64,000 nt of DNA, from positions 928,001 to 992,000 of the forward strand of contig CAXXLZ010000002.1 of assembly GCA_963675595.2 (NCBI GenBank). The letters are read 5' to 3'. The translations under genes were made by a program, and so were the position numbers. Each line of letters begins with the position of its first letter. The first letter of the stretch is position 1. Positions 6,899-24,306 of this stretch are shown piece after piece. Below the pieces are notes generated by a model that worked only from the letters and a program-made list of their open reading frames with translations, was not told the DNA's origin and made no database searches. Origin of the DNA: Thermodesulfobacteriota bacterium. GTDB taxonomy: Bacteria > Desulfobacterota > Desulfarculia > JACQYL01.

Positions 6899-8079
6899 TC
6901 ATGACTCGCGGTTTTCCATCCCCGGCCCTTGGGGCCTCGGCGAAGCCGAGCTGAGCGAGGCGGAGTCGAGGCCCCAAGGGCTCGCCGCGAACTGGGCCGG
7001 GGTCATGTAATTCAATGCACTGTGCGGTCTTTCCTCGTTATAGGCTTTCCGCCATTTGGCGGCCAGAGTCTGCGCTTCCTTGATGTTGTTGAAAATTTCC
7101 ATGTTCAAGAATTCATCCCGAAAACGGCTGTTGAAACTTTCCACGTACCCGTTCTGCCAAGGGGCTCCCGGCTCGACGAAAAGGGTTCCCACTCCCAGGT
7201 CTTTCAGCCAGTTTCTCACCTTTTGGGCTATAAATTCGGGACCGTTATCCGATCGAATGCCCGTTGGAACTCCCCGCTCGCCCATCAATCGGCTCAGCTC
7301 GTTCAAAACGTCTTCACCCGTAATGGAGCGGTTGATCCTCAGGGCCAGGTTTTCCCGAGTAAACTCGTCGACAATGGCCAAGCACTTGAACTGACGGCCG
7401 TCGACCAAGCGGTCATGAATGAAATCCAACGTCCAGACATCATTTGCAAAAGCCGCCTTACGCTTGTTGCACGCATTGGCATCAACTCCCAGGAAGCGTT
7501 TCTTCTTGGCTTTTCGAGGTACCTTGAATCCTTCCTCTTTCCAAAGTCTATGAATTCGCTTGTAGTTTACCGCCCACCCCGCATCACGCAGCAGCCGAGT
7601 GATCCTACGGCATCCAAAACGGGGATGTTCTCCAACCAACCGGTGAAGAGCCTTGATCAGTTCCACCTCATCGTCCCGTTCCTTCGGCTCATAACGTTGG
7701 GTGGATCGGTGTTGACCGGCTACGCGGCAGGCCCGACGCTCTGAAGCGGCATGTTCACTTCGAACATAATCAACCGCTTTCCTACGACGCGCCGGGCTTA
7801 GAAGTTTCCCTCCGCAAGATCCTTCAGCATTGCCTTGTCCAACATCAGATCGGCGACCAGCTTTTTTAAGCGTGCATTTTCCTTTTCCAGTTCTTTTAGC
7901 CGTTTGGCCTCCTCAGCCTTCATCCCCCCATACTGGTTTCGCCACCGGTGGTACGTCGCCTCGCTCACCTCCAGCGATTGGCAAACCTGCGCTATCGTCT
8001 GCCCTGCCGTCAGACGACGGTCCGCGTCTTCAAGTTTCCGGATGATTTGCTCCGCGCTGTGTCTCTTTCTCTTGGCCAT
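6899..8079 (-). CDS. IS3 transposase OrfA/OrfB, probably joined by a -1 programmed frameshift
   Basis: OrfA HTH (MAKRKRHSAEQII...YHRWRNQYGGM...LKELEKENARLKKL, 7798-8079); GGGAAAC slippery site just before the OrfA stop; OrfB rve core W.LDF, DEFTRE, SDNGPEF, PGAPWQNGYVESFN. Confidence 0.9.
6926..6980. repeat. GC-rich palindrome inside the IS3 3' region
   Basis: CCCTTGGGGCCTCG...CGAGGCCCCAAGGG inverted repeat. Confidence 0.7.
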
Positions 8080-8964: not shown

Positions 8965-10014
8965 TCATTCAATAAAGCCTTCTTCGCTTGTCTGCCTCGT
9001 GCGACGCCGACGGTCGTTCCAGTAACGCAGAATGGTGAAGTCGTCCCCTACGGCAAAAGCCAAATTACGAGATGCAACCCAAACAGCATTCAAGTTCACG
9101 CTTGTTCCGGAATCCATCTTGCTCAACTCCATACCGTCATAAAACAAAATGGTACCGTCTTCTCCAACGGCGATGACGAAATCCGAAGAACACCCATGAA
9201 CTTGACTCAGAGGGCTTGTAGACTCAGGGACCGGGATATCCTGCCATTCCTCCCCGGTATAATGAGTGAAGATTCCTCTATTGTTCTGGTACCAAATGTC
9301 TGAACTTTTATTGTAGCCTACCGCAAATATGTCACTGCTTGAAACACCCCAAACATTTCTATAGCCTGTGGATATGATTCCATGCTGGTATCCTGAATCT
9401 AAAAGCCCAAAACTATGAAAGGTTTCTCCGAACCCTTTCATAGTATCTGTCGTATAAGTAGAACAGGAGTCACAAGGGATGATAAACTCTGCCGCAAAAC
9501 CGGGGTACATGGAACCAACAGCGGCTAACATGCTTCCGTCGGTCCAAATACTCGCGATATAAGTATCTGGAATCCCAATCACGTCAGCAGTGGTTTCTAA
9601 GTCCTCACATTGAATGTCGTACAAGCCTATTGTAAATGCCGAGCTACCACAATAAATAGATTCTGCTCCCCGCATCACCTCATTAGGAATGTCTATAAAC
9701 TGATCCCCATCAAAAATAATATTTCCGTTATTGGTTGATATGACCAAACCCTGTCTTGTTAAGCCTAATATCTTATTAAACTTTTTTCCTGTAATCTCCT
9801 GGAAGACTTCCCACTTATTTGACGAAAGATGAATCAATATTCCGCCTATCCCAATAATATAGACGTTATCTTTCGATGTCCCCCAAACATCTACAAGTCT
9901 CCCACTATATTCCCCTAAGTATATTCGGCTCCAGGAAGCCCATACATTATCGTAAGACAGAACAATCCAATTAAATAGCATGAAAGCAATCATTATTTTC
10001 AGCCAATGCTTCAT
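8965..10014 (-). CDS. Secreted beta-propeller-like protein, paralogue of 5755-6813
   Basis: Likely start MKHWLKIMIAFML (signal peptide); same blade motifs; the last ~60 aa (VIAVGEDGTILFYDGMELSKMDSGT.VNLNAVWVASRNLAFAVGDDFTILRY) are nearly identical to the paralogue. Confidence 0.7.
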   Translation of the reverse strand: MKHWLKIMIAFMLFNWIVLSYDNVWASWSRIYLGEYSGRLVDVWGTSKDNVYIIGIGGILIHLSSNKWEVFQEITGKKFNKILGLTRQGLVISTNNGNIIFDGDQFIDIPNEVMRGAESIYCGSSAFTIGLYDIQCEDLETTADVIGIPDTYIASIWTDGSMLAAVGSMYPGFAAEFIIPCDSCSTYTTDTMKGFGETFHSFGLLDSGYQHGIISTGYRNVWGVSSSDIFAVGYNKSSDIWYQNNRGIFTHYTGEEWQDIPVPESTSPLSQVHGCSSDFVIAVGEDGTILFYDGMELSKMDSGTSVNLNAVWVASRNLAFAVGDDFTILRYWNDRRRRTRQTSEEGFIE

Positions 10015-10318
10015 TGAATGGCCTCCGTACAATAAAGTTACCTGGACTTTCTGATTATTACCGGAACCGATAAATTTTGTCTTAAAAAACCATTGAAGGT
10101 AGTTTGTAGCTTCATTTATGTTTAACATGCGTAAATTAACTGCTTTCTATCAAGAAAATCAGCTTAATTATACTTATAAATAGTTTCAATTAGCATCCAA
10201 ATCTTTTTTAACATAGCCAATTTATGTTTACCGTACTAAGCTTACTATTCTGTATTTTCACTTTTTTGACATCCGTTTGACACATATTCTCATAAAACAT
10301 CATTTAGTTAATAATCAA

Positions 10319-10939
10319 CTAAGGAAGGCTGCTTAACATCACTTCAATCGAAGCTTTAGCACTCTTTTTAACGCACGGAGTCAATGATCCTACTAACCCA
10401 CCTTTAGTTAATCTGATCCAAGAACGGTCTTTCCAAAGCAACCTTCCATCTTCTATATTTATCAAGGATGCGGACACTTCTGCATGACACCATTTTTCAG
10501 CTACAGCATAGGTAGATTCCAAATCTTCAATAAAAATAAAGAGAAGACCTGTCTTATTTTCCATTGTACCTAAAGCCGCAAGCTCCTTAGGGTCCATCTC
10601 GTAAATATCTTCTCCTCTTAAGTGGTTTTTAATTAACAAAGTTTTTTCGAATACAGACTTATGATCATAACCTTTTCCCCGTAATGCATCTATTATCCAT
10701 TCATCTATTTCCTCTATAAATTCTGCGTCGAGATCAACTTTGCCTTTATCGTGTCTTACATCCATCACGCGTAGAATTATTATTTTATTTAATGAATATT
10801 TACCAAAACTTTTATCAAGGTACATTGGTACTCGTCTATTTAAGGTTGTCTTAGTCTTAGGAGTGATGCATCCAGCTGATACTAATATCCCACAAAATAT
10901 CAATAACCATGGCAACATTCTAACTTTCCTACTCATCAT
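10319..10939 (-). CDS. Lipoprotein of unknown function (possible CsgG/LpoB-like alpha/beta fold)
   Basis: Lipobox VSAG-C after a hydrophobic stretch; C-terminal A.V.ASLINIEDGRLLW pattern; AT-rich. Confidence 0.6.
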   Translation of the reverse strand: MMSRKVRMLPWLLIFCGILVSAGCITPKTKTTLNRRVPMYLDKSFGKYSLNKIIILRVMDVRHDKGKVDLDAEFIEEIDEWIIDALRGKGYDHKSVFEKTLLIKNHLRGEDIYEMDPKELAALGTMENKTGLLFIFIEDLESTYAVAEKWCHAEVSASLINIEDGRLLWKDRSWIRLTKGGLVGSLTPCVKKSAKASIEVMLSSLP

Positions 10940-11061
10940 TTCACAACTCCTCGTTGATCCAAGAGGTCTATAGTTGCGGCACGTATAGCGGCGAAGCACA
11001 TCAGGTTTGGCTCCGTCAGCACGATTGAGCTATATTTGCTTTGTCTTTAGTGGAAGGTGTT

Positions 11062-12195
11062 TCAAGGTACGGTCACATCTCTGGCTAAACGGAAGCCTAT
11101 CCTACCGCTGCGATAAGCCTGCAATGCAAAGCCCCTGCGCGCACAACGAAGGCGTCTAGCTGAATTTCGCCAGCTACCCCCTCGATAAACTCGTGCTGTA
11201 CCCGACGATGGACCCGTAGGGTCCGTCACTGAGCCTTCAGGATAATCACCGTACCAATCTTCCACCCACTCGTGTACGTTTCCGTGCATATCATACAGTC
11301 CCCATGCGTTGGGTTTCTTCTTCCCTACCAGAGGCGTTTCCGTACCTGAATTTGCTTCAAACCACGCGTATTCTCCCAGAACACGGTCATCGTTTCCGTA
11401 ACAATATCTTCTTCCAATCCCGCCGGACCTGCAAGCATATTCCCACTCCGCTTCGGTCGGGAGTCTGTATCGTTTCGAGCCTACGGATTCATTCAGTTTG
11501 TTTATGAACTTGCAGCAGTCATCCCAAGAGACCCCTACTGGCGCATCGTCCCACCAATCCTTTGACAAAAGATGAGGCATGGCGTTAAGAAAACTCTTCC
11601 ATTGGAACAATGTCACTTCCGTGGTCTGTAAGTAGAATCCTTTGGTCAGGGTAACCTCGTGCTGAGTCTCCAAACTGCTTCGATCCTCTTCATCCGGTGG
11701 ACTTCCCATCAAGAAAGTCCCGGGAGGAATGTACACGAATTCAAACTTGCTGCCTTTGATTTGGTCGACTATCGAGACCTTGGGCATGTCTATCGGCATC
11801 GCGGACGGCATGGAAGCGGTTGTCGAATCCGGGATGAGCCGAGCCTCAACCACCTGTTTCTCGCCCACTCGCACCTGGATCAAGTCTTTCCAATCTCTGT
11901 ATCCTATCATCTTCATATCGACCCTATGACTTTCTGGAGTAACTTCGGATTTGTGCCCCGGAGTGGTCCCCATGAACTCTCCATCAAGATACCAAAGGGC
12001 TCCAGGCGGTTCACTGCGCACTTCTAGTCCGGTCATTGAAGCCGTGCCCTTATCACCTTGATTGCTCAAAGATGAAACGTCATGGGGACTCACAGGTACT
12101 TCTTCTTGTGACCCAGAAGAACTATCGAAATAGAGGAAAAGCCAAACAAAACTTAAGATCAGGGAATATCTGGCGATATTCGACTTCAAGTTCAT
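11062..12195 (-). CDS. PEGA + FGE-sulfatase (SUMF1/COG1262) protein, TagR-like
   Basis: Signal/TM; PEGA (LEVRSEPPGALWYLDGEFMGTTP); FGE motifs IPPGTFLMGS, RLPTEAEWEYACR, KPNAWGLYDMHGNVHEW, RGGSW and GFRL. Confidence 0.85.
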   Translation of the reverse strand: MNLKSNIARYSLILSFVWLFLYFDSSSGSQEEVPVSPHDVSSLSNQGDKGTASMTGLEVRSEPPGALWYLDGEFMGTTPGHKSEVTPESHRVDMKMIGYRDWKDLIQVRVGEKQVVEARLIPDSTTASMPSAMPIDMPKVSIVDQIKGSKFEFVYIPPGTFLMGSPPDEEDRSSLETQHEVTLTKGFYLQTTEVTLFQWKSFLNAMPHLLSKDWWDDAPVGVSWDDCCKFINKLNESVGSKRYRLPTEAEWEYACRSGGIGRRYCYGNDDRVLGEYAWFEANSGTETPLVGKKKPNAWGLYDMHGNVHEWVEDWYGDYPEGSVTDPTGPSSGTARVYRGGSWRNSARRLRCARRGFALQAYRSGRIGFRLARDVTVP

Positions 12196-12403
12196 ATCTT
12201 CTCCTTCCCATGAAGCCGTCCCGAGAAACCTATTTCGTATAGTCGCATAGCACCGACAAAGCGGTCTTTTGTTCAGGGAGGGCGTAAAATAGTTTATTGA
12301 TATGAGCATAAAATAGGTTAAGGCACGATACTTAATACCACATGTTTCTTAATTTGATGGGTCATCGCTGATAGTGTAGTTAATTCATGCTATTTGCACT
12401 AAT

Positions 12404-14452
12404 TCATTTGCGACTTTCCATAATAACTTGAATTTTATTAATACTATTTGAACCGACATCTATACTTATTGTTGCCTTGGTCTTTGGAAACTTTTCGATG
12501 ACCTTGCACTTTGGTGGAAAACTATTGTATTCATGGAAACCGGCTACAACCCCGATGTATTTCGCCTCCGGGGCCCTACGAAGCTTTAGTTGCCTGTCGC
12601 TTGCCGGCAGGAGCGTTACCTCTGTCACTTCTCCCGAGGCTGTTTTCGAATCGTCTTCACCAGCCAGGAGCTCCTCACACGAACCGTCAAAATCACTCTT
12701 TTTTGCTAGTTGAAAGATGCGCACAAGAAGTGAATGGGCTTGCCCCTCATGCCAATTCAAGCGCGCACTTGATTTCAGGTATAAGGAATCCTCCACAGGA
12801 GGCTTGACCTTCGGTTCTTGTTTTTCCATCTCTTTCAAGCGTTGTGCAATCTCTAGTTCTTTGGATAGGTCTCGAATTTGGCCGTCTCTCTTGGCCAGAT
12901 CCGTTTGAGCCGCTTTCAACCGATCTTCAACCTCCACTTTCTTACGTTCACATTCCGCCATTCTTTCTTTCGAAAGCTTCAACTCACTGTTGCAGTCCGC
13001 CAATCGCTTTTGCAAATCAGCGGTATCGTTCTTCAAATTCTCTACCGAAGCCAGCCGAACTCGTTGGTTTTCCGCAGCACGTCTCTTAGCCAGCTCAAGC
13101 TCACGTTCCAGCTCGGCAAGGCGATTCGCAGCCTCAGCGGCATCGGATCTTGCTTTTTCTTCCACCGCCAGTCTGAGCCATTTGCTTTTCTCAGCTCTTT
13201 CGTCGGCAAGTTTCGCCTCACCTTCAACTTCCGCAAGACGCCCAAGTACCTCCATCTTTTCCGTTTTTGCGCGCTCTTCGGCATCTCTCATTAAGGATTC
13301 AAATTCTTTGCTTTGAAGCGCCGCTCTTGCCTCAGCCCCATCTGCTCGAACTTTCTGTTTCCCCAATTCCAATGTCAATTCCTGCACTCTCGAACTAAGG
13401 TTCAGAAATTCCGATTGCCTATCCGTCAGTTCATTAGAAAGCTGCGTCAACTTCGATTCGGCTGCTTCCTTTTTCGATCGCTCCTGCTGGAGGGAAAGCT
13501 TAAGTGAATCGATTTCTCGCTCAAGACCCTTGATGCGTCCGACAGCTTCCTCCAGGTCCAAACTCGCCTTCGCTTCAACGGCGAGTTTGAGACGATCAAG
13601 CTCCTCGGCCCGTTCCTTTGAAACACCCAGCTCTCGCTGGATCTCGGCTATCCGGCGTAATGCTTCGGATCTTTCGGCCTTCACCCGCTTTTCGGCTTCC
13701 GTCAGCAACGCCTGGATCTCCTTGTCTTTGGCCGTGACTCTCTCTTCAGTCGCGTCAAGACGTTCTCTTTGTTTGGCCAGTTCAGAAGCCAAATCCCGCA
13801 CCCTGGCCTCAAGAACCTCACGTTTGACTCGCTCGGCCTCAAGTTCCGCAGCCTGCTTTTTAAATTCGGATTCAGCCGATTCTCGCAGCCCTTGCTCTTG
13901 TTTGAGGATGCGATCGAGCTGGACGATCTTTCTTTCTCTATCTCGAATCTCGAGCTCTGCAGCGGCCTTTTCCTCCGCCAGCCTGGTCTTGAGTTCCGCA
14001 ACCTCCGCAACCAAACTTTCGGTCAGCTTGGACTTCTGTTCGCTCAGCCGTTCTCTTTCCAACTTGGCGGCATCCTGTTCAGATAGCGCCAGGGCCGTTC
14101 TGATCAGTTTGTCGGCGACATAGGCATTGTGTAGCCTTTGTTCCGAAGATTGAGAGGTCTCTGCTTTTCTCAGGTAGTCCTCCGCTCTCACCAGAAAAGC
14201 CGACCACGGCCCTGCGATCTCCGGCCTGTTCTTTACTTTTCTTAAAAAGGCACGTGTTTGCATCAAGGCTTGATCAGCATCGGTTCCCAGTTCAGCGGCG
14301 GCTGATTCAGAAACGGAGGCTGAGGAACCGGCCGGCTCAACGGCCCATGTCGATCCTGGGTAAGAGGCAAACACCAACAGAATCCAGCACATAACGGTGA
14401 CGATTAAAAGGCAACGCATATTACAGGCATGCTTCCCAGATCTGTTTTCCAT
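12404..14452 (-). CDS. tssJ: Signal peptide + DUF4398-like helical domain + long coiled coil + C-terminal TssJ (SciN/VasD)-like domain
   Basis: The last ~130 aa (SARLNWHEGQAHSLLVRIFQL...F...TLLP...AKYIGVVAGF) fit the TssJ pattern; the centre is heptad-rich E/K/R/A/L; signal peptide has no lipobox. Confidence 0.72.
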   Translation of the reverse strand: MENRSGKHACNMRCLLIVTVMCWILLVFASYPGSTWAVEPAGSSASVSESAAAELGTDADQALMQTRAFLRKVKNRPEIAGPWSAFLVRAEDYLRKAETSQSSEQRLHNAYVADKLIRTALALSEQDAAKLERERLSEQKSKLTESLVAEVAELKTRLAEEKAAAELEIRDRERKIVQLDRILKQEQGLRESAESEFKKQAAELEAERVKREVLEARVRDLASELAKQRERLDATEERVTAKDKEIQALLTEAEKRVKAERSEALRRIAEIQRELGVSKERAEELDRLKLAVEAKASLDLEEAVGRIKGLEREIDSLKLSLQQERSKKEAAESKLTQLSNELTDRQSEFLNLSSRVQELTLELGKQKVRADGAEARAALQSKEFESLMRDAEERAKTEKMEVLGRLAEVEGEAKLADERAEKSKWLRLAVEEKARSDAAEAANRLAELERELELAKRRAAENQRVRLASVENLKNDTADLQKRLADCNSELKLSKERMAECERKKVEVEDRLKAAQTDLAKRDGQIRDLSKELEIAQRLKEMEKQEPKVKPPVEDSLYLKSSARLNWHEGQAHSLLVRIFQLAKKSDFDGSCEELLAGEDDSKTASGEVTEVTLLPASDRQLKLRRAPEAKYIGVVAGFHEYNSFPPKCKVIEKFPKTKATISIDVGSNSINKIQVIMESRK

Positions 14453-14490
14453 TGAACCACCCTTTCGATGCATCAGGCACTGGATTGGAT

Positions 14491-14895
14491 TTACTCCTTG
14501 CTTTGAACTTCTTCCAAGTGCTTCTTCGATTCCTCGATATCGGTCAACATTTCTTGAGTGCTTTCTTTTTCTTTCTCGGACTGCGCCTTGGCATTAGCAA
14601 GTGTCGCATCCGCCCAGGCCTTTTCAGCCAAAAAATAGGCCTGTTCGTATTCACCCTTGATCAGCAGGTTTTTCGCTTCGTATAGCCCGTCTTCTGCCTC
14701 CATAAGTTCAGGGGGAGGCTCTTGTATATTCTTGCTATTCTTTCTGGCTTCAAGAAGCGTTGTCTCTGCCTTGGTTATCATATTCTCGGTATCGATTCTC
14801 AGTTTCGGAGAACAAGAGACTTGAATAAGTATTAGGAAGGTTAGCATGAATAAACTAAATAGGACTCTTGATCTATCATATCCCAAATAAACCAT
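14491..14895 (-). CDS. DUF4398-like lipoprotein
   Basis: Lipobox-like IQVS-C; PELMEAEDGLYEAK...GEYEQAYFLAEKAWADATLANAKA matches the DUF4398 pattern. Confidence 0.78.
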   Translation of the reverse strand: MVYLGYDRSRVLFSLFMLTFLILIQVSCSPKLRIDTENMITKAETTLLEARKNSKNIQEPPPELMEAEDGLYEAKNLLIKGEYEQAYFLAEKAWADATLANAKAQSEKEKESTQEMLTDIEESKKHLEEVQSKE

Positions 14896-14922
14896 AATTC
14901 TCCCCCAATTTAGAAGTAAATT

Positions 14923-17900
14923 CTATATACCTGGTACCGGAACAAACAACTCCTTAGGATAAGGGCTTGGTTTATCCCTATATTTTTCAGAAGCTTTCTT
15001 TTTTATTTCATCTTTAACAGATTTTTCAACCAGCCTGACCAAATCGTTTAGTTTTGGATAGCTCTGAATCGATTGCTGGTGGCCTTCCACTGTTTGCTTA
15101 AAATCGATGCTTACTTCTAGACAACAATCCAATGTATCACACTTATCAATTCTATTCTGCAAATCCTTAAGTTCATTTTTGAATATAAATGCATCCCAAT
15201 TAATTATCAAACCTGACATTATAGCGTTTGTTTCTCTAACAAAATAGTCAACTTGCTTATGGGTAACATTAACTTTACTAAGTTTTTTAATAATTTCTTT
15301 CGCATTCAATTTTGCCCGTTTTAGGTACTTTATAGAAGTATATCGATCGTATAATTTTCCGTTTTCGTTATCATTTGTTTTTGATCCGGAAAATATTCCA
15401 GATAAACCTGATAGCCAACCGGTATTTGAACCACTATAATAATCTTGGTTATTTTCGGTAAGTTTTGCAAGCCGAACATCTTCGTCAATAATTTCATATC
15501 CTGATATTAAAACACGGAAAACATCGAGAAACTCTCTGTACATTATCACAGTATCATTACTCTTCTCAGTTTTTCCGTACGTGCTGTCGTACTCACTAAT
15601 TATCGTTTCAAGCTTTTCAAATTCAGACGTTCCGTGATTGGGTTGGTGGATTTCGGCCATCAACTTTTCCACCACACGTTTCATTTCCTGCTTCTTTCCA
15701 ATTCTGATCGATTCTCCCTTCTGCTCCATCCGCTCTTTCGACTGGACCACAGCACGTCTTATCTGATCTGCTTTGGACCGTATCGCCGAACTGGAGCCGA
15801 CCAACTCCTTTTTGCTTTGAAGCAAATTTTCCAAAGCAATTTGGATTCCCTCACACGCTTCCACGCCGCCACACTTGACTGCCTTCGCAGCCAAGTCATC
15901 CAGTTGTCCCAAGAGAATCCCTTCGCGGCGCGACGCCAACCGGCCCTGCACATGCTTCCTCGCCGCCTCATTGAAGGTCGCCAGTTTCTTATATGCGGAC
16001 AACCCTTCGATCTCTTTTAGCACCTTCCCGTAGAGTTCCTCGCCCTGCGCGAACAGTCCTTTATTCTCCGCTTCGTCTGCGGCGTTCAGGAAACCCCTCA
16101 GCCGCTTATGCGCCTCCACCAAGTCTCGATAGCTCTTAGCGGTTTCGGACCGGTATCCTTGGGTACTTGAGTACTTTCGGTATTCCGACACCAGACTGCC
16201 CACCTGTTCCATCTGAGCCGAACCGTATCCCGGCGATTGGAAGGACACCTTTCCCAACATCTCTTCCATCTCCCTCACGATGCGCGCGAGCTCACCCTCT
16301 CGTTCCGCCCGTCCTCTCGATGCGGTCACGGCTTTTTCTATCGATTCCGCTTTGGAGCGGACGGCCGAACTGGAATCCATTAGTTCCTTCTGGCCTTGGA
16401 GCAGCTTCTCCAAATCCGTTCGCACGTCCCCGCACGCTTTGACGCTCCCGCATTCCGAGGCTCTGCTCCCCAAATCTTCCAGTTGCGCCAAAAGCATCCC
16501 TTCGCGGCACGACGCCAACCGGCCCTTCACGTGTTCCCTCGCAGCACCGGTGAAAGTCCCTAGTTCTTGATGACCGGACAGGCTTTGGATTTCTTCCAGC
16601 GCCTTCGCATAGAGTTCCTCGCCCTGATCGAACCGTCCTTGATTCTCCGCCTTTTCCGCCGCATCCAGAAGACCCGTCAGCCGTTTATGGGCCTCGATCA
16701 GGTCTTGGTAGCTCTTCACGGTCTTGGAACTGTACCCCCGGGTACTCGAGTACTTCCCATATTTCGAGACCAGCTCGCCCAGCTTATCCATCTCAGCCGA
16801 ACCGTACCCCGAAGACGTGAAAGACACCTTGCCCAAGACTCCCTTCATCTGCCTCGCGATGTAGACGACATCGCTCTCTTCCTGCGCCCGTCCTCTCGAT
16901 GCGGCCACGGCTTTTTCTATCGATTCCGCTTCGGAGCGAATGGCCGAACTGGAGTCCATTAGTTCCTTTTGGTCTTGGAGCAGTTTCTCCAAATCCGTTT
17001 GCACGTCCCCGCACGCTTTGACGCTTCCGCATTTGGACGCCCTGCTCCCCAAATCCTCTAGTTGTGCCAAAAGCATCCCCTCGCGGCACGACCGTATCCC
17101 GTCCCTCACGTACGCTAATGCCCCTGCGTTGAACGTCGCCATTTCCTTGTGAACGGACAGCCCTCGCATTTCTTCCAGCGCCTTCTCATAGAGCTCCTTG
17201 CCCTGTTCGAACCGTCCTTGATTCTCAGCCTTTTCCGCCGCATCCAGAAGACCCGTCAGCCGTTTATGCGCCTCGGTCAGGTCTTGGTAGTTCTTTGCAG
17301 TCTTGGAACTGTACCCCCGGATGCCCGAGTACTTCCCATATTTCGAGACCAGCTCGCCCAGCTTATCCATCTGAACCGAACCATATCCCGGCGATTGGAA
17401 GGACACCTTTCCCAACAACTCATCCATTTCCCTCACGATGCGCGCGAGCTCACCCTCTCGTTCCGCCCGTCCTCTCGATGCGGCCACGGCTTTTTCTATC
17501 GATTCTGCTTTGGAGCGAATGGCCGAACTGGAAACTACTAGTTCCTTTTGGCCTTGGAGCAGCTTCTCCAAATCCGTTTGCACGTCCCCGCACGCCGTCA
17601 CGCTCCCGCATTTGGACGCCCTGCTCCCCAAATCCTCCAGTTGTGCCAAAAGCATCCCCTCGCGGCACGAAGCCAGCCGGCCCTTCACGTAATCCCTCGC
17701 AGTGCCGTTGAAAGTTTCTAATTCTTTATGACCGGATAGGCTTTGGATTTCTTCCAGCGCCTTCGCATAGAGTTCCTCGCCCTGCTCGAACCGTCCTTGA
17801 TTCTCCGCTTCGTGTGCGCCGTTCAAAATACTCGTCAAACGCTCGTGCCCGGCAAGCAGTTCCTGGTAACTCTTAACCGTTTCGGCCTGATATCCACGGG

Positions 17901-20900
17901 CCCTCGAGTATTGCCCGTATTCCAATACCAGACTGCTCAACCTATCCATCTCGGACGAACCGTACCCCGGAGCTTGGAAAAACACCTTTCCCAACGACTC
18001 CTTCATCTCCCTCACGATCCGGAGCAATTCCCCCTCTTCTTGCGCAAGTTTCTTCGACAAAGCCACGGCTTCTCTCACCGCGTCCGCTTTGGAGCGTACC
18101 ATGGGACTGGAGCCGACTAGATCCTTTTCTCCTCGGATCAACGTCTCCAGAGCCGTTTGGATTCCCTCACACGCCTCCACACCGTCACACTTGGCGCCCT
18201 TCCCGGCCAAGTCCGCCAGTTGTGCCAGAAGCATCCCTTCGCGGCACGACGCCAGCCTGCCTCTTACGTACTCTCCCGCCGCCTCATTAAACGAGGCGAG
18301 TTCCTTGTGGGAAGACAGCTGTACGATTTCCCCAAGGGCCTTCTCGTAGAGTTCCTCGCCCTGCGCGAACCGTCCTTGATTCTCCGCCCTTTCCGCCGCA
18401 TCCAGAAGATCCGTCAGCCGTTTATGCGCCTCGATCAGGTCTTGGCAGCTCTTCGCGGTCTTGGAACTGTACCCCCGGGTGCCCGAGTACTTCCCATACT
18501 CCAATAACAGCTTGGCCAACTTGTTCATCTCATCCGAACCGTATCCCGGCGATTGGAAGGACACCTTCCCCAACATCTCTTCCATCTCCCTCACAGTGCG
18601 GGCCAGCTCTCCCTCTGCCAGCGCCCGTCTTTTCGAAGCGGCCACGGTTTCTCGTACGGCCTTCGCTTTGGACTGAATCGCCGAACTAGTCTCTACCAAG
18701 TCTTTTTGCTCCTCAAGCAGCCACTCCAGGTCAACACGCTCTCGTTCGCAAAATTCCACGCTCGCGCACCCGGACGCTCTACGAAGCAAATTCTCCAGTT
18801 GCCCCAAGAGAATCCCCTCGCGGCACGACCGTATCCCGTCCCTCACGTATGCTAATGCGCCGGCATTGAACGTCGCCATTTCCTTGTGAACGGACAGCCC
18901 TTGCATTTCTTCCACCGCCTTCTCATAGAGCTCCTTGCCCTGCTCGAACCGACCTTGCTTACCGGCCTTGTCCGCTTCGTCAAGTAAACTCGCCATCCGT
19001 TTGTGCGTTTCCAACACTTCTCGGTAGCTCTTGGCCGTTTCGGACCGGTATCCGCGTGTCTCCGAGTATCTCACGTACTCCGAGAGGAGCTTACCCAGCT
19101 TGTCCGTTTCAGCCCCGCCGTACCCCGGCGACTTGAAGGAAATCCTATCCAACGACTCCTTCATCTCCCTCGCGATCCGGAGCAATTCCCACTCTTCCTG
19201 CGCCTTTCTTTTTGACACTGCCGCCGCTGCTCTTATGGCTTCCGCTTTGGCCCGGATCGCCGAGCTGGATTCCACCAACTCCTTTTGGCCTTGGAGCAAC
19301 TTCTCCAGAGTCGTTTGGATTCCCTCACACGCCTCCACCCCGCCACACTTGGCGGCCTTCCCGGCCAGATCGTCCAGTTGTCCCAAAAGCATCCCTTCAC
19401 GACACGACGCCGTGCGGCTCATCACATGCTTCCTTGCCGCGTCGCTGAAGGAAGCCGGCGCCTCATGTCCGGACAGGCTTTCGATTTCCCTGAGCGCCTT
19501 CTCGTACAGCTCCTTGCCCTGCTCGAACCGCCCCTCATTCTCCGCTTCGTCCGCAGCGTTCAAAATACTCGTCAAACGCTCGTACCTAGCAAGCAGTTCC
19601 TGGTAACTTTTAATCGTTTCGGCTCGGTACCCCCGAGTCCCCGAGTACTTCACGTACTCCGAAAACAATTCCCTCACCTTATCCATCTGGGCCGAACCGT
19701 ATCCCGGCGATTGGAAGGACACCTTTCCCAACATCTCTTCCATCTCCCTCACGATGCGGGCCAGCTCTCCTTCTCGTTCCGCCCGTCTTTTGGAAGCGGT
19801 CACGGCTCTTTCTACGGCGTCAGCTTTGGTCCGGACGGCCGAACTGGAGTCCATTAGTTCCTTTTGGTCTTTGAGCAGCTTCTCCAGAGCCGTTTTCAAC
19901 TCCCCGCAGGCTTTGACGCTCCCGCATTTGGACGCCCTGCTCCCCAAATCCTCCAGTTGTGCCAAAAGCATCCCTTCGCGGCACGACGCCAACCGGCCCT
20001 TCACATGCTCGCTTGCCGCGTCGATGAAGGCCGCCGGCGCCTTATAGGCGGACAGTCCTTTGATCTCCCTGAGCGCCCTCTCATAGAGTTCCTCGCCTTG
20101 CGCGAATCGTCCTTGATTCTCCGCCTTTTCCGCCGCATCCAGAAGATCCGTCAGCCGTTCATGGGCCTCGATCAGGTCTTGGCAGCTCTTCGCGGTCTTG
20201 GAACTGTACCCCCGGGTGCCAGAATACTTCCCATATTTCGAGACCAGACTGCCCAGCTCTTCCATCTCAGCCGAACCGTAGCCCGAAGACTTGAAAGATA
20301 CCTTGCCCAAGACTCCCTGCATCTGCCTCGCGATGTAGACGACATCGCTCTCTTCCTGCGCCCGTCTTTTCGACACGACCACGGCTTCTCTTAGGGCTTT
20401 CGCTTTGGAACGGACGGCCGAACTGGAATCCATTAGTTCCTTCTGGCCTTGGAGCAGCTTCTCCAAATCCGTTTGCACGTCCCCGCACGCCGTCACGCTC
20501 CCGCATTCGGAGGCTCTGCTCCGCAAATCCTCCAGTTGCGCCAAAAGCATCCCTTCGCGGCACGACGCCAGCCTGCCTCTTACGTACTCTCCCGCCGCCT
20601 CATTAAACGAGGCGAGTTCCTTGTGGGAAGACAGCTGTACGATTTCCCCAAGGGCCTTCCCGTAGAGTTCCTCGCCCTGCGCGAATCGTCCTTGATTCTC
20701 CGCCCTTTCCGCCGCATCCAGAAGATCCGTCAGCCGTTTATGCGCCTCGATCAGGTCTTGGCAGCTCTTCGCGGTCTTGGAACTGTACCCCCGGGTGCCC
20801 GAGTACTTCCCATATTTCGAGACCAGCCCGCCCAGCTTATCCATCTCAGCCGAACCGTATCCCGGCGATTGGAAGGACACCTTTCCCAAAACTCCCTCCA

Positions 20901-22038
20901 TCTGCCTCGCGATGTAGACGACATCGCTCTCTTCCTGCGCCCGTCTTCTCGATGCGGCCACGGCTTTTTCTATCGATTCCGCTTTGGAGCGGACGGCCGA
21001 ACTGGAGTCCATTAGTTCCTTTTGGTCTTTGAGCAGCTTCTTCAAATCCGTTTGCACGTCCCCGCAGGCTTTGACGCTCCCGCATTCGGAGGCTCTGCTC
21101 CGCAAATCCTCCAGTTGCGCCAAAAGCATCCCTTCGCGGCACGACGCCAACCGGCCCTTCACATGCTTGTTTGCCGCGTCGATGAAGGTCGCCGGCGCCT
21201 TATGGGCCGACATCCTTTGAATTTCTTTCAGGGCCTTTTCGTAGAGTTTTTCGCCCTGCTCGAATCGTCCTTGCTTCTCGGCCTTGTCGCCTTCGTCAAG
21301 AAAGCCGCTCAGCCGTTTGTGTGTCTTCAACAGGTCTCGGTAGCTCTGGGCGAGTTCGACCCGGTAGCCGTCCGCACCTGAATGTTCCTCGTATTCGGAA
21401 ACCAGCTCGCCCAGTCTTTCGATCTCCGCTCTCCCATAGCCGGGCGATTTGAAGGATATGTTCCCCAAAGACGCTTCCATGTCTCTCGCGATCGGGAGCA
21501 AGTCTCCCGCTTGGTGAACACGCCTTTTCGAGGCGGCCACGAGTTTTTCTCTTAAGTCCGGCGGCACACTACTACCAATCTTTGCTCCAACAACTATTTC
21601 TTGACTATCGATCCATATCAAAACCGGAAATATAAGTCCGGCGTCAAATACTTTATCGAGGTTACTGTATTCCAATGTCAGGAATAATCGATTTTTTGTT
21701 CCGAACTCCTCAATATCCTTTTTCCAGCGTATCCAGTTTTCACGTGGAGAAACGGGAACCGCAATAACGGATAATGCCTGGTCTTTCTTGGCCAGGGACT
21801 CAATAGATTTGAGTGTTCTTCTATCCATCTCTTCTTCAGGAATAAAGAAGAATACGGCGGTTAACGGTGATTTGAAAACATCTTTTGATTGTATGGTCTG
21901 TCCTTTAATATCCTTAAAAGTGAAAAAATTAACGCGCTGGCCTTCATTGACTATCGCAAGAAGTTCGCCATATCCAATAAAAATAAATAAACATGAAGCT
22001 AAAACTATATATTTTATTATAATATATATATATTTCAT
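14923..22038 (-). CDS. Giant secreted repeat protein 1 (2371 aa): signal, redoxin-like N-domain without CxxC, ten 193-aa helical repeats, divergent AT-rich tip
   Basis: Uninterrupted ORF; the SF.S.GYG...QGRF.QG.ELY..AL...SCREG...C.....C unit occurs ten times; N-domain FTFKDIKGQT...VFFF...P.LIWIDS resembles a thioredoxin fold. Confidence 0.85.
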   Translation of the reverse strand: MKYIYIIIKYIVLASCLFIFIGYGELLAIVNEGQRVNFFTFKDIKGQTIQSKDVFKSPLTAVFFFIPEEEMDRRTLKSIESLAKKDQALSVIAVPVSPRENWIRWKKDIEEFGTKNRLFLTLEYSNLDKVFDAGLIFPVLIWIDSQEIVVGAKIGSSVPPDLREKLVAASKRRVHQAGDLLPIARDMEASLGNISFKSPGYGRAEIERLGELVSEYEEHSGADGYRVELAQSYRDLLKTHKRLSGFLDEGDKAEKQGRFEQGEKLYEKALKEIQRMSAHKAPATFIDAANKHVKGRLASCREGMLLAQLEDLRSRASECGSVKACGDVQTDLKKLLKDQKELMDSSSAVRSKAESIEKAVAASRRRAQEESDVVYIARQMEGVLGKVSFQSPGYGSAEMDKLGGLVSKYGKYSGTRGYSSKTAKSCQDLIEAHKRLTDLLDAAERAENQGRFAQGEELYGKALGEIVQLSSHKELASFNEAAGEYVRGRLASCREGMLLAQLEDLRSRASECGSVTACGDVQTDLEKLLQGQKELMDSSSAVRSKAKALREAVVVSKRRAQEESDVVYIARQMQGVLGKVSFKSSGYGSAEMEELGSLVSKYGKYSGTRGYSSKTAKSCQDLIEAHERLTDLLDAAEKAENQGRFAQGEELYERALREIKGLSAYKAPAAFIDAASEHVKGRLASCREGMLLAQLEDLGSRASKCGSVKACGELKTALEKLLKDQKELMDSSSAVRTKADAVERAVTASKRRAEREGELARIVREMEEMLGKVSFQSPGYGSAQMDKVRELFSEYVKYSGTRGYRAETIKSYQELLARYERLTSILNAADEAENEGRFEQGKELYEKALREIESLSGHEAPASFSDAARKHVMSRTASCREGMLLGQLDDLAGKAAKCGGVEACEGIQTTLEKLLQGQKELVESSSAIRAKAEAIRAAAAVSKRKAQEEWELLRIAREMKESLDRISFKSPGYGGAETDKLGKLLSEYVRYSETRGYRSETAKSYREVLETHKRMASLLDEADKAGKQGRFEQGKELYEKAVEEMQGLSVHKEMATFNAGALAYVRDGIRSCREGILLGQLENLLRRASGCASVEFCERERVDLEWLLEEQKDLVETSSAIQSKAKAVRETVAASKRRALAEGELARTVREMEEMLGKVSFQSPGYGSDEMNKLAKLLLEYGKYSGTRGYSSKTAKSCQDLIEAHKRLTDLLDAAERAENQGRFAQGEELYEKALGEIVQLSSHKELASFNEAAGEYVRGRLASCREGMLLAQLADLAGKGAKCDGVEACEGIQTALETLIRGEKDLVGSSPMVRSKADAVREAVALSKKLAQEEGELLRIVREMKESLGKVFFQAPGYGSSEMDRLSSLVLEYGQYSRARGYQAETVKSYQELLAGHERLTSILNGAHEAENQGRFEQGEELYAKALEEIQSLSGHKELETFNGTARDYVKGRLASCREGMLLAQLEDLGSRASKCGSVTACGDVQTDLEKLLQGQKELVVSSSAIRSKAESIEKAVAASRGRAEREGELARIVREMDELLGKVSFQSPGYGSVQMDKLGELVSKYGKYSGIRGYSSKTAKNYQDLTEAHKRLTGLLDAAEKAENQGRFEQGKELYEKALEEMRGLSVHKEMATFNAGALAYVRDGIRSCREGMLLAQLEDLGSRASKCGSVKACGDVQTDLEKLLQDQKELMDSSSAIRSEAESIEKAVAASRGRAQEESDVVYIARQMKGVLGKVSFTSSGYGSAEMDKLGELVSKYGKYSSTRGYSSKTVKSYQDLIEAHKRLTGLLDAAEKAENQGRFDQGEELYAKALEEIQSLSGHQELGTFTGAAREHVKGRLASCREGMLLAQLEDLGSRASECGSVKACGDVRTDLEKLLQGQKELMDSSSAVRSKAESIEKAVTASRGRAEREGELARIVREMEEMLGKVSFQSPGYGSAQMEQVGSLVSEYRKYSSTQGYRSETAKSYRDLVEAHKRLRGFLNAADEAENKGLFAQGEELYGKVLKEIEGLSAYKKLATFNEAARKHVQGRLASRREGILLGQLDDLAAKAVKCGGVEACEGIQIALENLLQSKKELVGSSSAIRSKADQIRRAVVQSKERMEQKGESIRIGKKQEMKRVVEKLMAEIHQPNHGTSEFEKLETIISEYDSTYGKTEKSNDTVIMYREFLDVFRVLISGYEIIDEDVRLAKLTENNQDYYSGSNTGWLSGLSGIFSGSKTNDNENGKLYDRYTSIKYLKRAKLNAKEIIKKLSKVNVTHKQVDYFVRETNAIMSGLIINWDAFIFKNELKDLQNRIDKCDTLDCCLEVSIDFKQTVEGHQQSIQSYPKLNDLVRLVEKSVKDEIKKKASEKYRDKPSPYPKELFVPVPGI
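15710..21500 (-). repeat. Ten tandem 579-bp coding repeats
   Basis: Shadow ORFs recur at 579-bp spacing (e.g. 20267/20846); boundaries approximate. Confidence 0.9.
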
Positions 22039-22197: not shown

Positions 22198-22329
22198 GGC
22201 CCGGGTTCTTCGCTCATGGGCTTCGCCGCATGCGCAGGCTCCGCCCTCTTCGCTCAGAACCTCGGCCCTCACCTGCAAGGAAAACCGCACAGGGTAAAGG
22301 GGTAAAAGGGATCAGGGGTAAGACCTCAG
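22198..22329 (-). repeat. 132-bp 3' element, copy A (IMH-like pyrimidine tract + GC hairpin)
   Basis: Identical to 24517-24648; covers the last codons of the gene and the downstream sequence. Confidence 0.9.
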
Positions 22330-24306
22330 CAGACGCGCGCCGAGGTTGCCGCCGCGGACGTCCGGCGTGAGGCCGCCGCGATTCGCCGAACGGCAGTACC
22401 CCGCGTAGTAGTACCAGCCGCCGCCGCGAAGAACCCGGTAGGAGCCTGAAGCGGGACCCGTGGGATCCGTAACGGATCCACTGGGATAGTCGCCGAACCA
22501 GTCTTCCACCCACTCCCAGACGTTTCCGTGCATGTCGTACAACCCCCAGGCATTGGCCGCCTTTTGAGCCACGGGATGTGTCATGTCTCCGGAATTGTGA
22601 CAATACCACCCCATGGCGTACAGGTTCGGATCATAACCGCAGACGGTTTCCGTGATGCCGCCATTGGCAAAGGCCGTCGTGGAACCCGCCCGAGCCGCGC
22701 ACTCCCACTCCGCTTCCGTGGGCAACCGGTACGTGCCCTCGCCCAGTTGATTCATTGCCGCCACAAAATCCTGGACGTCGTCCCACGATACAGATTCCAC
22801 GGGACAATCATCTCCACAAGAACTGAACGAGGAGGGATTGCTCCCCATGACCGCTTTCCACTGCCCCTGCGTAATCTCCGTGGTCTGCAGGTAATATCCT
22901 TGGGTCAGCGTCACCTGGTGTTGCGTCTCATCGCTGTCCCGGCCCGGCTCATCCGTGGGACTGCCCATGGTGAACGTGCCCGGCGGGATATATTTGAAGG
23001 TCATGCCGAGAGAGTTGGTGAACGTGTCCGGTGGCGACGTTTGCAGGAATTTCGACCAGGCCTGTGTCGGTCGGGGGGACCCGGAAAACGGCGCTTCCAC
23101 GCATCTTTCCAGCGAATCCATGCCGGCTGTGCCGGAACCCGAAAAGCTCATGGTCAGGTGGTACGGTTTGCCCCCTAACTCATCCGCATCGATGCCGTCG
23201 GCGGCGTTGGAATCCAGGAACACGTAGTAGTCCGCCAGGTTCGAGGTTCCGATGGCAACAGCCGAACCCGTGTCGTAGGTTTGGACGTAGTAGTTCATCT
23301 GCGCGGCGCCGCAGGAAGGAGACTTCCAGATCCCGTGATTGGCCGGGGTCGAGCCCAGGCCGTTGGTCCTGGATATGACGTAGGTCGCCGGGGAGCCGAA
23401 CCGGGTCAATACGGCGTTCCCGTGACTTCCGTCCGTAAACGTGACGGACAGATGGTGTCCCATTCCGGCGTAGTCGCTCACATCGATGCCGTCTTGAATA
23501 TCGGCGTCGATGAACACGTAGTACTCCGTCAGATCGGGCGTGGCCAGGATCAAGGCCGAACCGTCCACATAACTCTGGATGTAGAAGTTCATGGAAAGCC
23601 CCGCGTCCTTCCATATCCCGTCGTAGATTACCGACCACGAACCGACCTGAATTTGAAAGCTCCTGGGCACGGAAGTCCGGTCATCGCTATCCCTTACGCT
23701 GCAGGTCGCCGTATAAGAGCCCCCCTGCGCGTAGGTGTGACTGGTTTGTCCGTCGGAACGGATGTCGGAGGTCCCGTCGTCGAACCGAAAAACGTACTCT
23801 ACAATGGGCGATCCATAGGGGTCGTATCCCGAACAGGTGCAATCGACCTGCAACGGTGCGTTCCCCGACGCGGGTGAACAAGAAAACGCCGAGACTACGG
23901 GATCCTCGCAAACTTCACCGATTTCCGGAACATAGGTGCAACCGGAGGGGCCCAGATTGGCACGAATCTCTATCGGCTCTAACACGGTGGAGCTCCCGTC
24001 GGCATGAAAGGCCGTGCAGACCGCGAGAAACTCGCCGGCGCCCAAATACGTGTGCGCCACATAACCTCGGGAGGAGGATTCAAAAGAGCCGTCGCCGAAG
24101 TCGAAAAAGTATTCAACCGCGCCCGGAGCCGTATCGGGTACGGCGCAGCCGAAGGATACCGTCAACGGAGCCGGACCGGCCGCCGGATCGGGACGAACGT
24201 TGAAAGCCGAGGTTGCAAAAGACACCGGTGGACTCAGCGTCGAGGCAACGAGGCATCCAAAGACAGTAAAAAGGAGCATTCTCGGTAACGAATAGGGTGA
24301 TCTCAT
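22312..24306 (-). CDS. Secreted 2xPKD + 2x unknown ~95-aa domain + FGE-sulfatase (CLec-fold) protein A; candidate DGR target
   Basis: Likely start MRSPYSL with GGAGAG RBS; PKD motifs G.APLTVSF, YFFDFGDG and HTY..G.Y; FGE motifs RLPTEAEWE, NAWGLYDMHGNVWEW and RGGGW. Confidence 0.85.
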   Translation of the reverse strand: MRSPYSLPRMLLFTVFGCLVASTLSPPVSFATSAFNVRPDPAAGPAPLTVSFGCAVPDTAPGAVEYFFDFGDGSFESSSRGYVAHTYLGAGEFLAVCTAFHADGSSTVLEPIEIRANLGPSGCTYVPEIGEVCEDPVVSAFSCSPASGNAPLQVDCTCSGYDPYGSPIVEYVFRFDDGTSDIRSDGQTSHTYAQGGSYTATCSVRDSDDRTSVPRSFQIQVGSWSVIYDGIWKDAGLSMNFYIQSYVDGSALILATPDLTEYYVFIDADIQDGIDVSDYAGMGHHLSVTFTDGSHGNAVLTRFGSPATYVISRTNGLGSTPANHGIWKSPSCGAAQMNYYVQTYDTGSAVAIGTSNLADYYVFLDSNAADGIDADELGGKPYHLTMSFSGSGTAGMDSLERCVEAPFSGSPRPTQAWSKFLQTSPPDTFTNSLGMTFKYIPPGTFTMGSPTDEPGRDSDETQHQVTLTQGYYLQTTEITQGQWKAVMGSNPSSFSSCGDDCPVESVSWDDVQDFVAAMNQLGEGTYRLPTEAEWECAARAGSTTAFANGGITETVCGYDPNLYAMGWYCHNSGDMTHPVAQKAANAWGLYDMHGNVWEWVEDWFGDYPSGSVTDPTGPASGSYRVLRGGGWYYYAGYCRSANRGGLTPDVRGGNLGARLLRSYP

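Follow-up and report, generated by a model that had tools for sequence, protein, structure and literature searches.

A TssJ domain joined to a coiled coil and a DUF4398-type head in the type VI secretion island of a Thermodesulfobacteriota bacterium

By definition, TssJ of type VI secretion systems (T6SSs) is a lipoprotein of the outer membrane, and part of the contact between the membrane complex and the outer membrane is attributed to its acyl anchor. According to excerpts of the structural report on the E. coli protein, TssJ binds TssM by the loop joining strands 1 and 2; in the solved protein the N-terminus is turned toward the outer membrane and this loop away from it (PMC3213119). The T6SS membrane complex is described, in excerpts of a further report, as 5-fold with 15 TssJ copies and a 3:2:2 stoichiometry (PMC6517824). 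Some T6SSs work without TssJ; an excerpted source names Acinetobacter (TsmK) and, in part, Serratia (TagV) (PMC13584744). In full-text literature searches, no paper describing a TssJ with a stalk or without lipidation was returned.

The second system with which the locus described here can be compared is the two-gene module of DUF4398 proteins, which consists of a small and a large partner. At least 26 such pairs, adjacent and on the same strand, appear among the domain matches of 400 genomes from the phylum. Among the pairs analysed, the second gene encodes DUF4398 in 21/21 and OmpA in 20/21; one of the OmpA-bearing large partners also has a PRC barrel and one is truncated. A LysM variant of the large partner also exists, and Leptospira LipL71 is given as DUF4398 plus LysM in an excerpt of PMC5406399. 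Since the C-terminal domain is mostly OmpA and in some cases LysM, the C-terminal slot of the large partner varies. Both partners generally have a lipobox of their own (21/21 large and 20/21 small partners), so nothing yet indicates that the small one holds the large one. The coils of ordinary large partners measure 39-132 aa, and coil length in module members varies by internal repeats, as judged by eye. No paper about the function of DUF4398 was returned by a full-text literature search, judged by titles and part of the texts.

Here we analysed a window of 64,000 nucleotides, the whole stretch of DNA under study (GenBank assembly GCA_963675595.2, contig CAXXLZ010000002.1, positions 928,001 to 992,000), which carries a T6SS island. 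Two adjacent ORFs of this window, named L and J, have the following features (positions are those of the window).

12404-14473, minus strand: ORF J, 689 aa, with signal peptide, DUF4398 head, coiled coil and TssJ domain
14491-14895, minus strand: ORF L (small partner), 134 aa, DUF4398 by PF14346
14342-14473, minus strand: J signal peptide, residues 1-44, without a usable lipobox cysteine
14021-14278, minus strand: DUF4398-like head of the large-partner type, J residues ~66-151, by custom HMM and hhalign
12815-14020, minus strand: coiled-coil stalk, J residues ~152-553, proline-free, by composition and heptad occupancy
13439-13813, minus strand: stalk repeat copy 1, J residues 221-345, by local alignment, z 12.8
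13052-13399, minus strand: stalk repeat copy 2, J residues 359-474, by local alignment, z 12.8
12407-12814, minus strand: Pro-rich linker and TssJ domain, J residues 554-689, by PF12790 and TIGR03352

L is located upstream of J on the same strand, with a gap of 17 nt. J likely starts at Met8, which would give a protein of 682 aa; a purine-rich run lies directly ahead of this codon by eye, and the database copy of J (P0001) has 682 aa. A frameshift or assembly artefact was considered for J and rejected, the other two frames before the TssJ domain being filled with stops and containing no hidden signal peptide. Short-read contigs of runs X1 and X2 span 12300-15000 with 0 differences, and one contig of X3, a different sample from the same study, crosses the junction between coil and TssJ domain. 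Because the other frames are stop-filled and the contigs of X1, X2 and X3 agree, the J sequence, junction included, is confirmed as real.

The TssJ domain of J and the T6SS of this genome

The first-pass annotation had assigned the C-terminus of J to TssJ, and an HMM scan placed it above the cut-offs of both relevant families: PF12790 (T6SS-SciN) at residues 564-667 (E 2.7e-13, 50.1 bits, cut-off 27) and TIGR03352 (TssJ) at residues 555-677 (37 bits, cut-off 31.6). A profile of the J TssJ domain and 23 homologues matched the solved TssJs 3zhn, 6ixh, 6hs7, 3rx9/4y7o and 4a1r at E 4e-19 to 7e-13. The nearest relative is P0002, an ordinary lipoprotein of 169 aa with 40% identity and a Cys pair in common with J. 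Their alignment opens right behind the lipobox cysteine of P0002 (L-V-S-G-C) and includes the Pro-rich linker. The C-terminal part of J corresponds to a mature canonical TssJ lipoprotein, from just past the lipid cysteine. J also keeps the loop-region motif R-L-N-W-x-x-x-x-x-H, whose Asn is invariant in 24/24 sequences, and may bind TssM through the strand 1-2 loop.

The genome (6.8 Mb, 98% complete) contains one PF12790 match (J), one TssK and one DUF4398 protein (L). As J is the single PF12790 match genome-wide, a canonical tssJ hidden elsewhere is excluded, and the earlier claim that J holds the only TssJ-like domain holds good; the same scan found no canonical tssJ upstream of tssC. The other T6SS genes are complete and intact (TssA, B, C, Hcp, E, F, G, ClpV, VgrG, K, L and M). 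With a single PF12790 match and an otherwise complete T6SS, J is the sole candidate TssJ subunit. Two of the core genes bear directly on it.

39538-43200, minus strand: tssM, 1220 aa, expected partner of the TssJ domain
43893-45281, minus strand: tssK; an unrelated ORF of 403 aa stands in the usual tssJ slot upstream of it

This 403-aa ORF (45389-46600) has no family match, in agreement with the absence of tssJ beside tssK noted previously. Compared with the ORFs of 281-284 aa that precede tssJ in loci L015 and L026, it gave E 0.76 by BLASTP and E 1.7 by HMM. The tssM product matched IcmF-related_N with 214 bits and TIGR03348 with 374.5 bits, slightly below the cut-off of 388. IcmF_helical and IcmF_C were matched weakly and in the correct order, IcmF_C, the TssJ-binding C-terminal domain, at E 0.071. 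EAEC TssM structures were matched at E 2e-6, with the helical part covered and the last domain not. Through its final residues the protein is ~30% identical to TssM of L015 and L026, and these adjoin lipoprotein TssJs of the same TssJ subfamily as J.

The build of J was seen once. It accounts for 1 of 42 matches among 1.84 billion representative proteins, the other 41 having 118-397 aa apart from a repeat protein with 1133 aa that is unrelated. No second example was found in 440 genomes of the phylum. In the phylum sample it is 1 of 44 TssJ matches; the other TssJ open frames have 163-445 aa, and those of the long ones that were checked proved to be ordinary lipoproteins. Frames of 398-445 aa in relatives proved to hold upstream junk or Pro/Ala-rich C-terminal tails, with normal lipoboxes, and an 843-aa frame in L031 is a high-GC read-through before a normal 160-aa lipoprotein. 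None of the 26 related loci (5 genome and 21 metagenome, profile alignment A2) has the build of J: all contain ordinary short TssJs, and tssK lies directly downstream of tssJ in 19 of them. Alignment A1 was too diverse for a locus search, and A3 gave no loci in metagenomes. A word-based homologue search returned the query alone for the J TssJ domain (lengths 378-1206) and for L (73-235). Because the build was seen once, evolutionary conservation is not available as an argument for function.

The DUF4398-type head, the stalk and the small partner

The DUF4398-like head claimed for J is missed by Pfam, where the head alone gave no match at E<=10, and is borne out by purpose-built profiles. An HMM made from 21 large-partner heads ranked J first of 58,180 genome frames (E 1.6e-7, 33.3 bits), and hhalign matched the J head to the large-partner profile with a probability of 92.3% (E 5.4e-7, 84 columns). 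The match is not a composition effect, because the remainder of the J coil scores negative against the same HMM. By BLASTP, the J head gave E 0.28 with the large partner of G040. Searched against solved structures, the large-partner head profile returned just designed helical repeats and Cdc23.

L matches PF14346 (DUF4398) at residues 40-115 (E 9.5e-11, 42.5 bits, cut-off 27.9) and is the sole such match in the genome. With a small-partner profile, L is the best match in the genome (E 7.5e-15) and J is unmatched. BLASTP gave E 2.7 between L and J and nothing between L and the small partner of G040; L also showed a weak match to 4fm3 (E 0.0056). The J head thus sorts with the second genes of DUF4398 pairs and L with the first, and TssJ fills the slot usually held by OmpA, as had been proposed. 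L has a signal peptide followed by Cys28 in I-Q-V-S-C, at the position typical of the family. The Gln at -3 makes this lipobox fail the strict pattern that 20/21 small partners pass. L is therefore a probable lipoprotein; of the claim that a DUF4398 lipoprotein precedes J, the domain and its position 17 nt upstream stand, but the lipobox is atypical and the lipoprotein status stays at probable.

The hydrophobic core of J ends in V-F-A-S-Tyr38 (codon TAC) and is followed by a T-W-A / V-E cleavage site, assigned by rule of thumb. In the alignment with 21 large partners, Ser50 of J occupies the column of the invariant lipobox Cys. No lipobox pattern was found ahead of the J head, and Tyr38 or Ser50 stands at the would-be Cys positions. 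A signal peptide with Cys is present in 23/23 aligned TssJ homologues, whereas J has no lipobox Cys; the description of J as non-lipidated is upheld by this absence.

The stalk follows the head. J residues 90-553 contain zero prolines, residues 140-545 are rich in E/L/A/R/K, and weak SMC matches were found in this part. The long coil of the first-pass annotation is thus present, with a length of ~410 aa (from the head end at ~141 to 553) and not ~430. It includes the internal duplication of ~140 aa that had been noticed: in a Smith-Waterman alignment, residues 221-345 and 359-474 scored 222 versus 89 +/- 10 in 300 shuffles (z 12.8). The repeat unit spacing is 138 aa, and the copies are about 30-35% identical with no stops. 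Self-BLAST of J gave the identity line alone, the duplication having come from the Smith-Waterman comparison of two halves. Tandem Repeats Finder reported nothing, the repeat periods being above its 500-nt limit.

Putative anchor and function of J

With moderate confidence, we regard J as a chimeric non-acylated TssJ subunit of the single T6SS, in which OmpA has been replaced and the outer membrane is contacted indirectly via L. We infer its origin and mode of action as follows. The OmpA domain of a DUF4398 large partner would have been swapped for a mature canonical TssJ, the lipobox cysteine of the large partner would have been lost, and the coil would have grown to ~410 residues, partly via the tandem duplication of 138 residues. 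J would be exported by Sec with removal of the signal peptide, and its TssJ domain would dock on the periplasmic tip of TssM via the conserved strand 1-2 loop. Contact with the outer membrane would be made by pairing of the DUF4398 head with the probable lipoprotein L, replacing the acyl chains. That L holds J is an assumption, complicated by the own lipobox in both ordinary partners and by the atypical lipobox of L. The coil may act as a long tether beneath the outer membrane and not as a periplasm-wide ruler. Because the N-terminus of solved TssJ faces the outer membrane (excerpts of PMC3213119), a coil joined to it would lie under or along this membrane and not cross the periplasm. The suggestion that the stalk length implies an unusual envelope spacing appears weak for the same reason, and since ordinary large partners also have coils, of repeat-variable length.

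J could instead be a neutral or decaying chimera, an accident of recombination between tssJ and DUF4398 that is not under selection, in a T6SS that is inactive or operates with no functional TssJ. We hold this to be unlikely, even though the build seen once (1/42, 1/44, 0/26) agrees with it. The location of J fits as well: it lies ~25 kb from tssKLM and about 31 kb from tssK, whereas at each of the TssK loci (12/12) of class relatives a TssJ match lies no more than about 1 kb away, and J is surrounded by low-GC accessory genes with a transposase nearby. TssJ-independent T6SS activity is also on record in excerpts of PMC13584744. However, the 689-codon frame of J is intact, the motifs of its TssJ subfamily and the Cys pair in common with P0002 are retained, the head still scores as DUF4398, and the remaining T6SS genes are intact. 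The divergence of the stalk copies to about 30-35% identity without stops suggests long maintenance.

It is less probable again that J binds TssM with L not serving as the anchor, either through an uncleaved N-terminus in the inner membrane and a periplasm-spanning coil, or as a soluble periplasmic subunit. J has no lipobox Cys, at 15-18 residues its hydrophobic core falls on the border between signal peptide and membrane anchor, and four hundred helical residues are long enough to cross the periplasm easily. Yet after the core come a Pro-Gly break and a site of the small-x-small type, which we take, as a rule of thumb, to be the pattern of cleaved signal peptides. The tight L-J pair copies a conserved two-gene module, and in ordinary members the head adjoins the outer-membrane lipid anchor.

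The neighbours of L and J include giant proteins with 193-aa repeats. An accessory role, with the TssJ domain as an adaptor that links complexes to the envelope (for example to the giant repeat proteins) or gathers several of them and is not a stoichiometric core subunit, is the least probable reading: L and J do follow the gene of a 2371-aa repeat protein (gaps of 27 and 17 nt, with no terminator-like site in either by a promoter/terminator scan) in a block between tagF/fha and the island end, but the genome has no other TssJ for the core role and the giant proteins are tied to J by adjacency alone.

If J works as a TssJ subunit anchored via L, a partner lipoprotein can take over the anchoring of TssJ, and the widespread, unstudied DUF4398 two-gene module gains a first functional handle, its head and coil being an outer-membrane tether and its exchangeable C-terminal domain the hook. 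J is the sole TssJ of a complete T6SS, without an acyl anchor and grafted where the DUF4398 family puts a cell-wall-binding domain. More speculatively, and at a likelihood we would set low, the DUF4398 head and coil may be a general outer-membrane tether with swappable hooks (cell-wall-directed OmpA or LysM, or TssJ for a secretion machine), from which the T6SS would hang on lipoprotein-held cables. In that case TssJ could in principle do without acylation, and DUF4398 would have an assignable function; if the coil were also trimeric, five cables would bear the 15 TssJ copies of the 5-fold complex described in excerpts of PMC6517824.

Comparison with known systems

Like the DUF4398 module, L and J have the same order, strand and spacing, and a coiled coil comes after the J head; coil repeats are seen in other members too. 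Unlike the module, J ends in TssJ and not in OmpA (20/21) or LysM, lacks the lipobox seen in 21/21 large partners, and has a coil of ~410 aa versus 39-132 aa.

Like canonical TssJ, such as SciN of enteroaggregative E. coli (3rx9/4y7o), PA0080 (3zhn) and Serratia Lip (4a1r), J has a TssJ domain in its C-terminal 135 residues, keeps the loop region with the subfamily motif and is encoded in a T6SS island. Canonical TssJs are small single-domain proteins of about 150-250 aa, whereas J has ~550 extra N-terminal residues, has no acylated cysteine and is not adjacent to tssK. P0014, with three TssJ domains in tandem, and P0037, with two, came from the search of representative proteins and are likewise multi-part TssJs; unlike J, they are lipoproteins with repeated TssJ and have neither a coiled coil nor a DUF4398 head. 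The T6SSs of Acinetobacter and Serratia are, in excerpts of PMC13584744, precedents for a differently built outer-membrane end of the complex. In these systems unrelated proteins replace or supplement TssJ, whereas J keeps the TssJ fold and the anchor alone would be swapped.

DUF4398 scaffold and TssJ domain of J

The chimeric ORF J and the DUF4398 ORF L are adjacent in the window:

14491-14895, minus strand: L, 134 aa, a PF14346-type DUF4398 protein
12404-14473, minus strand: J, 689 aa, beginning 17 nt after L

The C-terminal ~135 residues of J are a TssJ domain, which exceeded the cut-offs of PF12790 (residues 564-667, E 2.7e-13, 50.1 bits against 27) and TIGR03352 (37 bits against 31.6). 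A profile made from this domain and 23 homologues matched the solved TssJs 3zhn, 6ixh, 6hs7, 3rx9/4y7o and 4a1r (E 4e-19 to 7e-13). The first-pass annotation was thus right to end a ~680-aa protein with a TssJ-like domain, and equally right about a coiled coil with an internal duplication. Between the signal peptide and the TssJ domain, residues 90-553 are proline-free and rich in E, L, A, R and K, with moderate heptad occupancy, and residues 221-345 and 359-474 form an old tandem duplication (score 222 compared with 89 ± 10 in shuffles, z 12.8).

Many long stop-free frames also lie over the coil of J and over the giant repeat genes, in other frames and on the plus strand (12500-14200 and 15600-21000). 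These Ser/Arg/Pro-rich frames look like composition artefacts, not genes.

A frameshift that fused two separate genes does not explain J, because upstream of the TssJ domain its other two reading frames are riddled with stops and contain no concealed signal peptide. Contigs of short-read runs X1 and X2, one sample and possibly the source of the assembly, span 12300-15000 with 0 differences, and a contig of X3, taken from another sample within this study, runs across the coil/TssJ junction. Since all four runs come from one study, they confirm the sequence and are not an independent occurrence.

DUF4398 was matched in 101 of 400 sampled genomes of the phylum, with at least 26 adjacent same-strand pairs in which the small gene comes first and the larger one follows ~400-550 nt on. 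We analysed the 21 pairs lying whole within fetched loci. All large partners carried DUF4398 and, by pattern, a lipobox; 20 carried OmpA (one large partner had an extra PRC barrel and one was truncated), and the coil from head to OmpA measured 39-132 aa. By the same pattern, a lipobox was present in 20 of the 21 small partners.

Profiles were run against the six-frame ORFs of this genome, 58,180 in all at a minimum length of 60 aa. The HMM of the 21 large-partner heads ranked J first (E 1.6e-7, 33.3 bits, residues ~66-151) and L second (E 0.17); the remainder of the J coil scored negative, so the match is not a composition effect. The small-partner HMM ranked L first (E 7.5e-15) and did not match J. 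The DUF4398-like head proposed earlier therefore holds by the large-partner HMM and by hhalign (large-partner heads against residues 45-160, probability 92.3%, E 5.4e-7), but not by Pfam, which gave no DUF4398 match in J even at E≤10. As the head of J matches large partners and L matches small ones, L and J are, judged by these profiles, a DUF4398 module with the TssJ domain exactly in the place of OmpA, as the first-pass annotation had it.

The C-terminal slot of this scaffold is variable in nature, since a large partner at locus L081 (G075:C167) has a LysM-like end instead of OmpA (weak matches) and Leptospira LipL71 is listed as DUF4398+LysM in PMC5406399. At locus L058 (G230:C31), a PRC-barrel domain follows OmpA.

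The T6SS island

Every T6SS gene in the window is on the minus strand, in this order from the high-coordinate end:

tssC, hcp, PD40 protein, tssE, tssF, tssG, clpV, vgrG
RDD protein, barrel-like ORF, PEGA kinase, 403-aa ORF without a family
tssK, tssL, tssM, tagF, FHA protein

tssB and tssA are just past the window end. Across the whole genome (6.79 Mb in 3 contigs, 98% complete), TssK, PF12790 and DUF4398 were each matched once, PF12790 by J and DUF4398 by L; J is thus the sole TssJ candidate for one otherwise complete T6SS. As had been claimed, no tssJ lies beside tssK. J is ~31 kb away, and the intervening genes include those for a pair of giant repeat proteins and a pair of FGE-sulfatase/PKD proteins. 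Other features of the island are:

6899-7666, minus strand: rve-type integrase/transposase near the low-GC end
11062-12309, minus strand: PEGA+FGE-sulfatase protein directly downstream of J
14923-22038, minus strand: giant repeat protein, 2371 aa, ending 27 nt before L
22312-24609 and 24631-26907, minus strand: near-identical PKD+FGE-sulfatase paralogs
26861-35038, minus strand: giant repeat protein, 2725 aa
35953-37173, plus strand: Ser/Thr kinase, C-terminal PEGA
37193-38638, minus strand: FHA protein
38632-39531, minus strand: TagF
45389-46600, minus strand: 403-aa ORF, no signal peptide by eye
46607-48259, minus strand: Ser/Thr kinase, C-terminal PEGA
48706-49539, minus strand: 277-aa ORF, no family; signal peptide and C-terminal aromatic residue
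60699-61706, minus strand: PD40 beta-propeller, between hcp and tssE

In each of the giant paralogs (65-78% identical), a hydrophobic N-terminus precedes a 193-aa unit repeated ~9-11 times in tandem (self-identity 52-54% at lag 193), and no convincing Pfam family was found for them. By eye, the 277-aa ORF looks like an outer-membrane barrel. The PEGA kinases, FHA protein and TagF look like a T6SS threonine-phosphorylation control set; the unusual PEGA theme of the kinases recurs in the gene downstream of J. ORFs at 8965-10999 have a GC of 0.37-0.43. Neither T6SS nor DUF4398 was present in the four relatives belonging to its own family or order, so the island was probably acquired by horizontal transfer.

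TssJ in other genomes

At all 12 TssK loci of class relatives, a TssJ match lay within ~1 kb of TssK. The closest fetched clusters, L015 and L026 (TssK 34-37% identical, TssM ~30% across full length), have the order X, tssJ, tssK, tssL, tssM; their TssJs are lipoproteins 220 and 246 aa long. The 403-aa ORF, which fills the usual tssJ slot upstream of tssK, has at most a weak, collinear similarity (E 0.76) to the 281-284-aa ORFs preceding tssJ there. Among 26 fetched loci with relatives of the J TssJ domain, tssK was directly downstream in 19 and a long N-terminal TssJ extension was found in none. In the 400 sampled genomes, the open frames that hold the 43 other TssJ matches are 163-445 aa long, compared with 729 for J, and the long ones that were opened are normal lipoproteins.

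A full HMMER pass of the J TssJ domain against 1.84 billion representatives gave 42 matches, none but J with a stalk. P0002, the top match, is a lipoprotein of 169 aa with 40% identity; its alignment with J begins at the residue following its lipid cysteine and takes in the Pro-rich linker. A signal peptide and Cys stand in all 23 aligned homologues where J has its coiled coil. Cys 599 and Cys 656 in the J TssJ domain are shared with P0002, absent from other aligned homologues, and may form a disulfide of a small subclade. Around the TssJ-like lipoprotein genes at L030-L033, window proteins used as queries detected no tssK, tssL or tssM in the 10 kb to each side.

Proposed anchoring of J and comparison with known systems

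The N-terminus of J has a charged start, a hydrophobic core of 15-18 residues ending V-F-A-S-Tyr38 (codon TAC), followed by Pro-Gly and a T-W-A / V-E site. When J is aligned with the 21 large partners, its Ser50 falls in the column of their invariant lipobox Cys. Tyr38 or Ser50 may be the former lipobox position; with either, no cysteine follows the core, and J is, by its sequence, non-lipidated as first described. The description of L as a DUF4398 lipoprotein stood for DUF4398 (42.5 bits, Pfam cut-off 27.9). Cys28 is at the family's usual position with Gln at -3, and by the usual lipobox rule we take L to be a probable, not certain, lipoprotein.

In solved TssJ, the TssM-binding loop (strands 1-2) sits on the far side from the N-terminus, and so from the outer membrane (PMC3213119). 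J retains the loop-region motif of its TssJ subfamily, and TssM here is collinear to the last residues with TssMs paired with lipidated TssJs (its last domain matched Pfam IcmF_C at E 0.071 only, and solved-structure matches span the helical part only). The most economical reading, which we favour with modest confidence, is that the TssJ domain would cap TssM as usual, that the DUF4398 head and L would supply the outer-membrane contact, and that the coil would be a long tether. Anchoring through the DUF4398 pair is plausible. Since the coil joins TssJ on the side facing the membrane, it would run beneath that membrane; with this geometry and the variable coils of ordinary large partners, stalk length is poor evidence for the unusual envelope spacing drawn from it earlier.

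The architecture of J is confirmed and was found in one genome; a neutral or decaying chimera, with the loop motif retained, is unlikely. A reading in which the stalk is soluble or held in the inner membrane, and L plays no part, is still more doubtful. A new accessory or tethering role for J, the sole TssJ candidate, is improbable.

The T6SS membrane complex has 5-fold symmetry and TssJ:TssL:TssM of 3:2:2 (PMC6517824). P0014 and P0037 are lipoproteins whose single chains carry three and two TssJ domains in tandem, respectively, and the three-domain form recalls the E. coli complex, with three TssJ copies per asymmetric unit. A TssJ with an exchanged anchor was not found in the literature searched; T6SSs lacking or supplementing TssJ are known, with Acinetobacter TsmK and Serratia TagV on record (PMC13584744).
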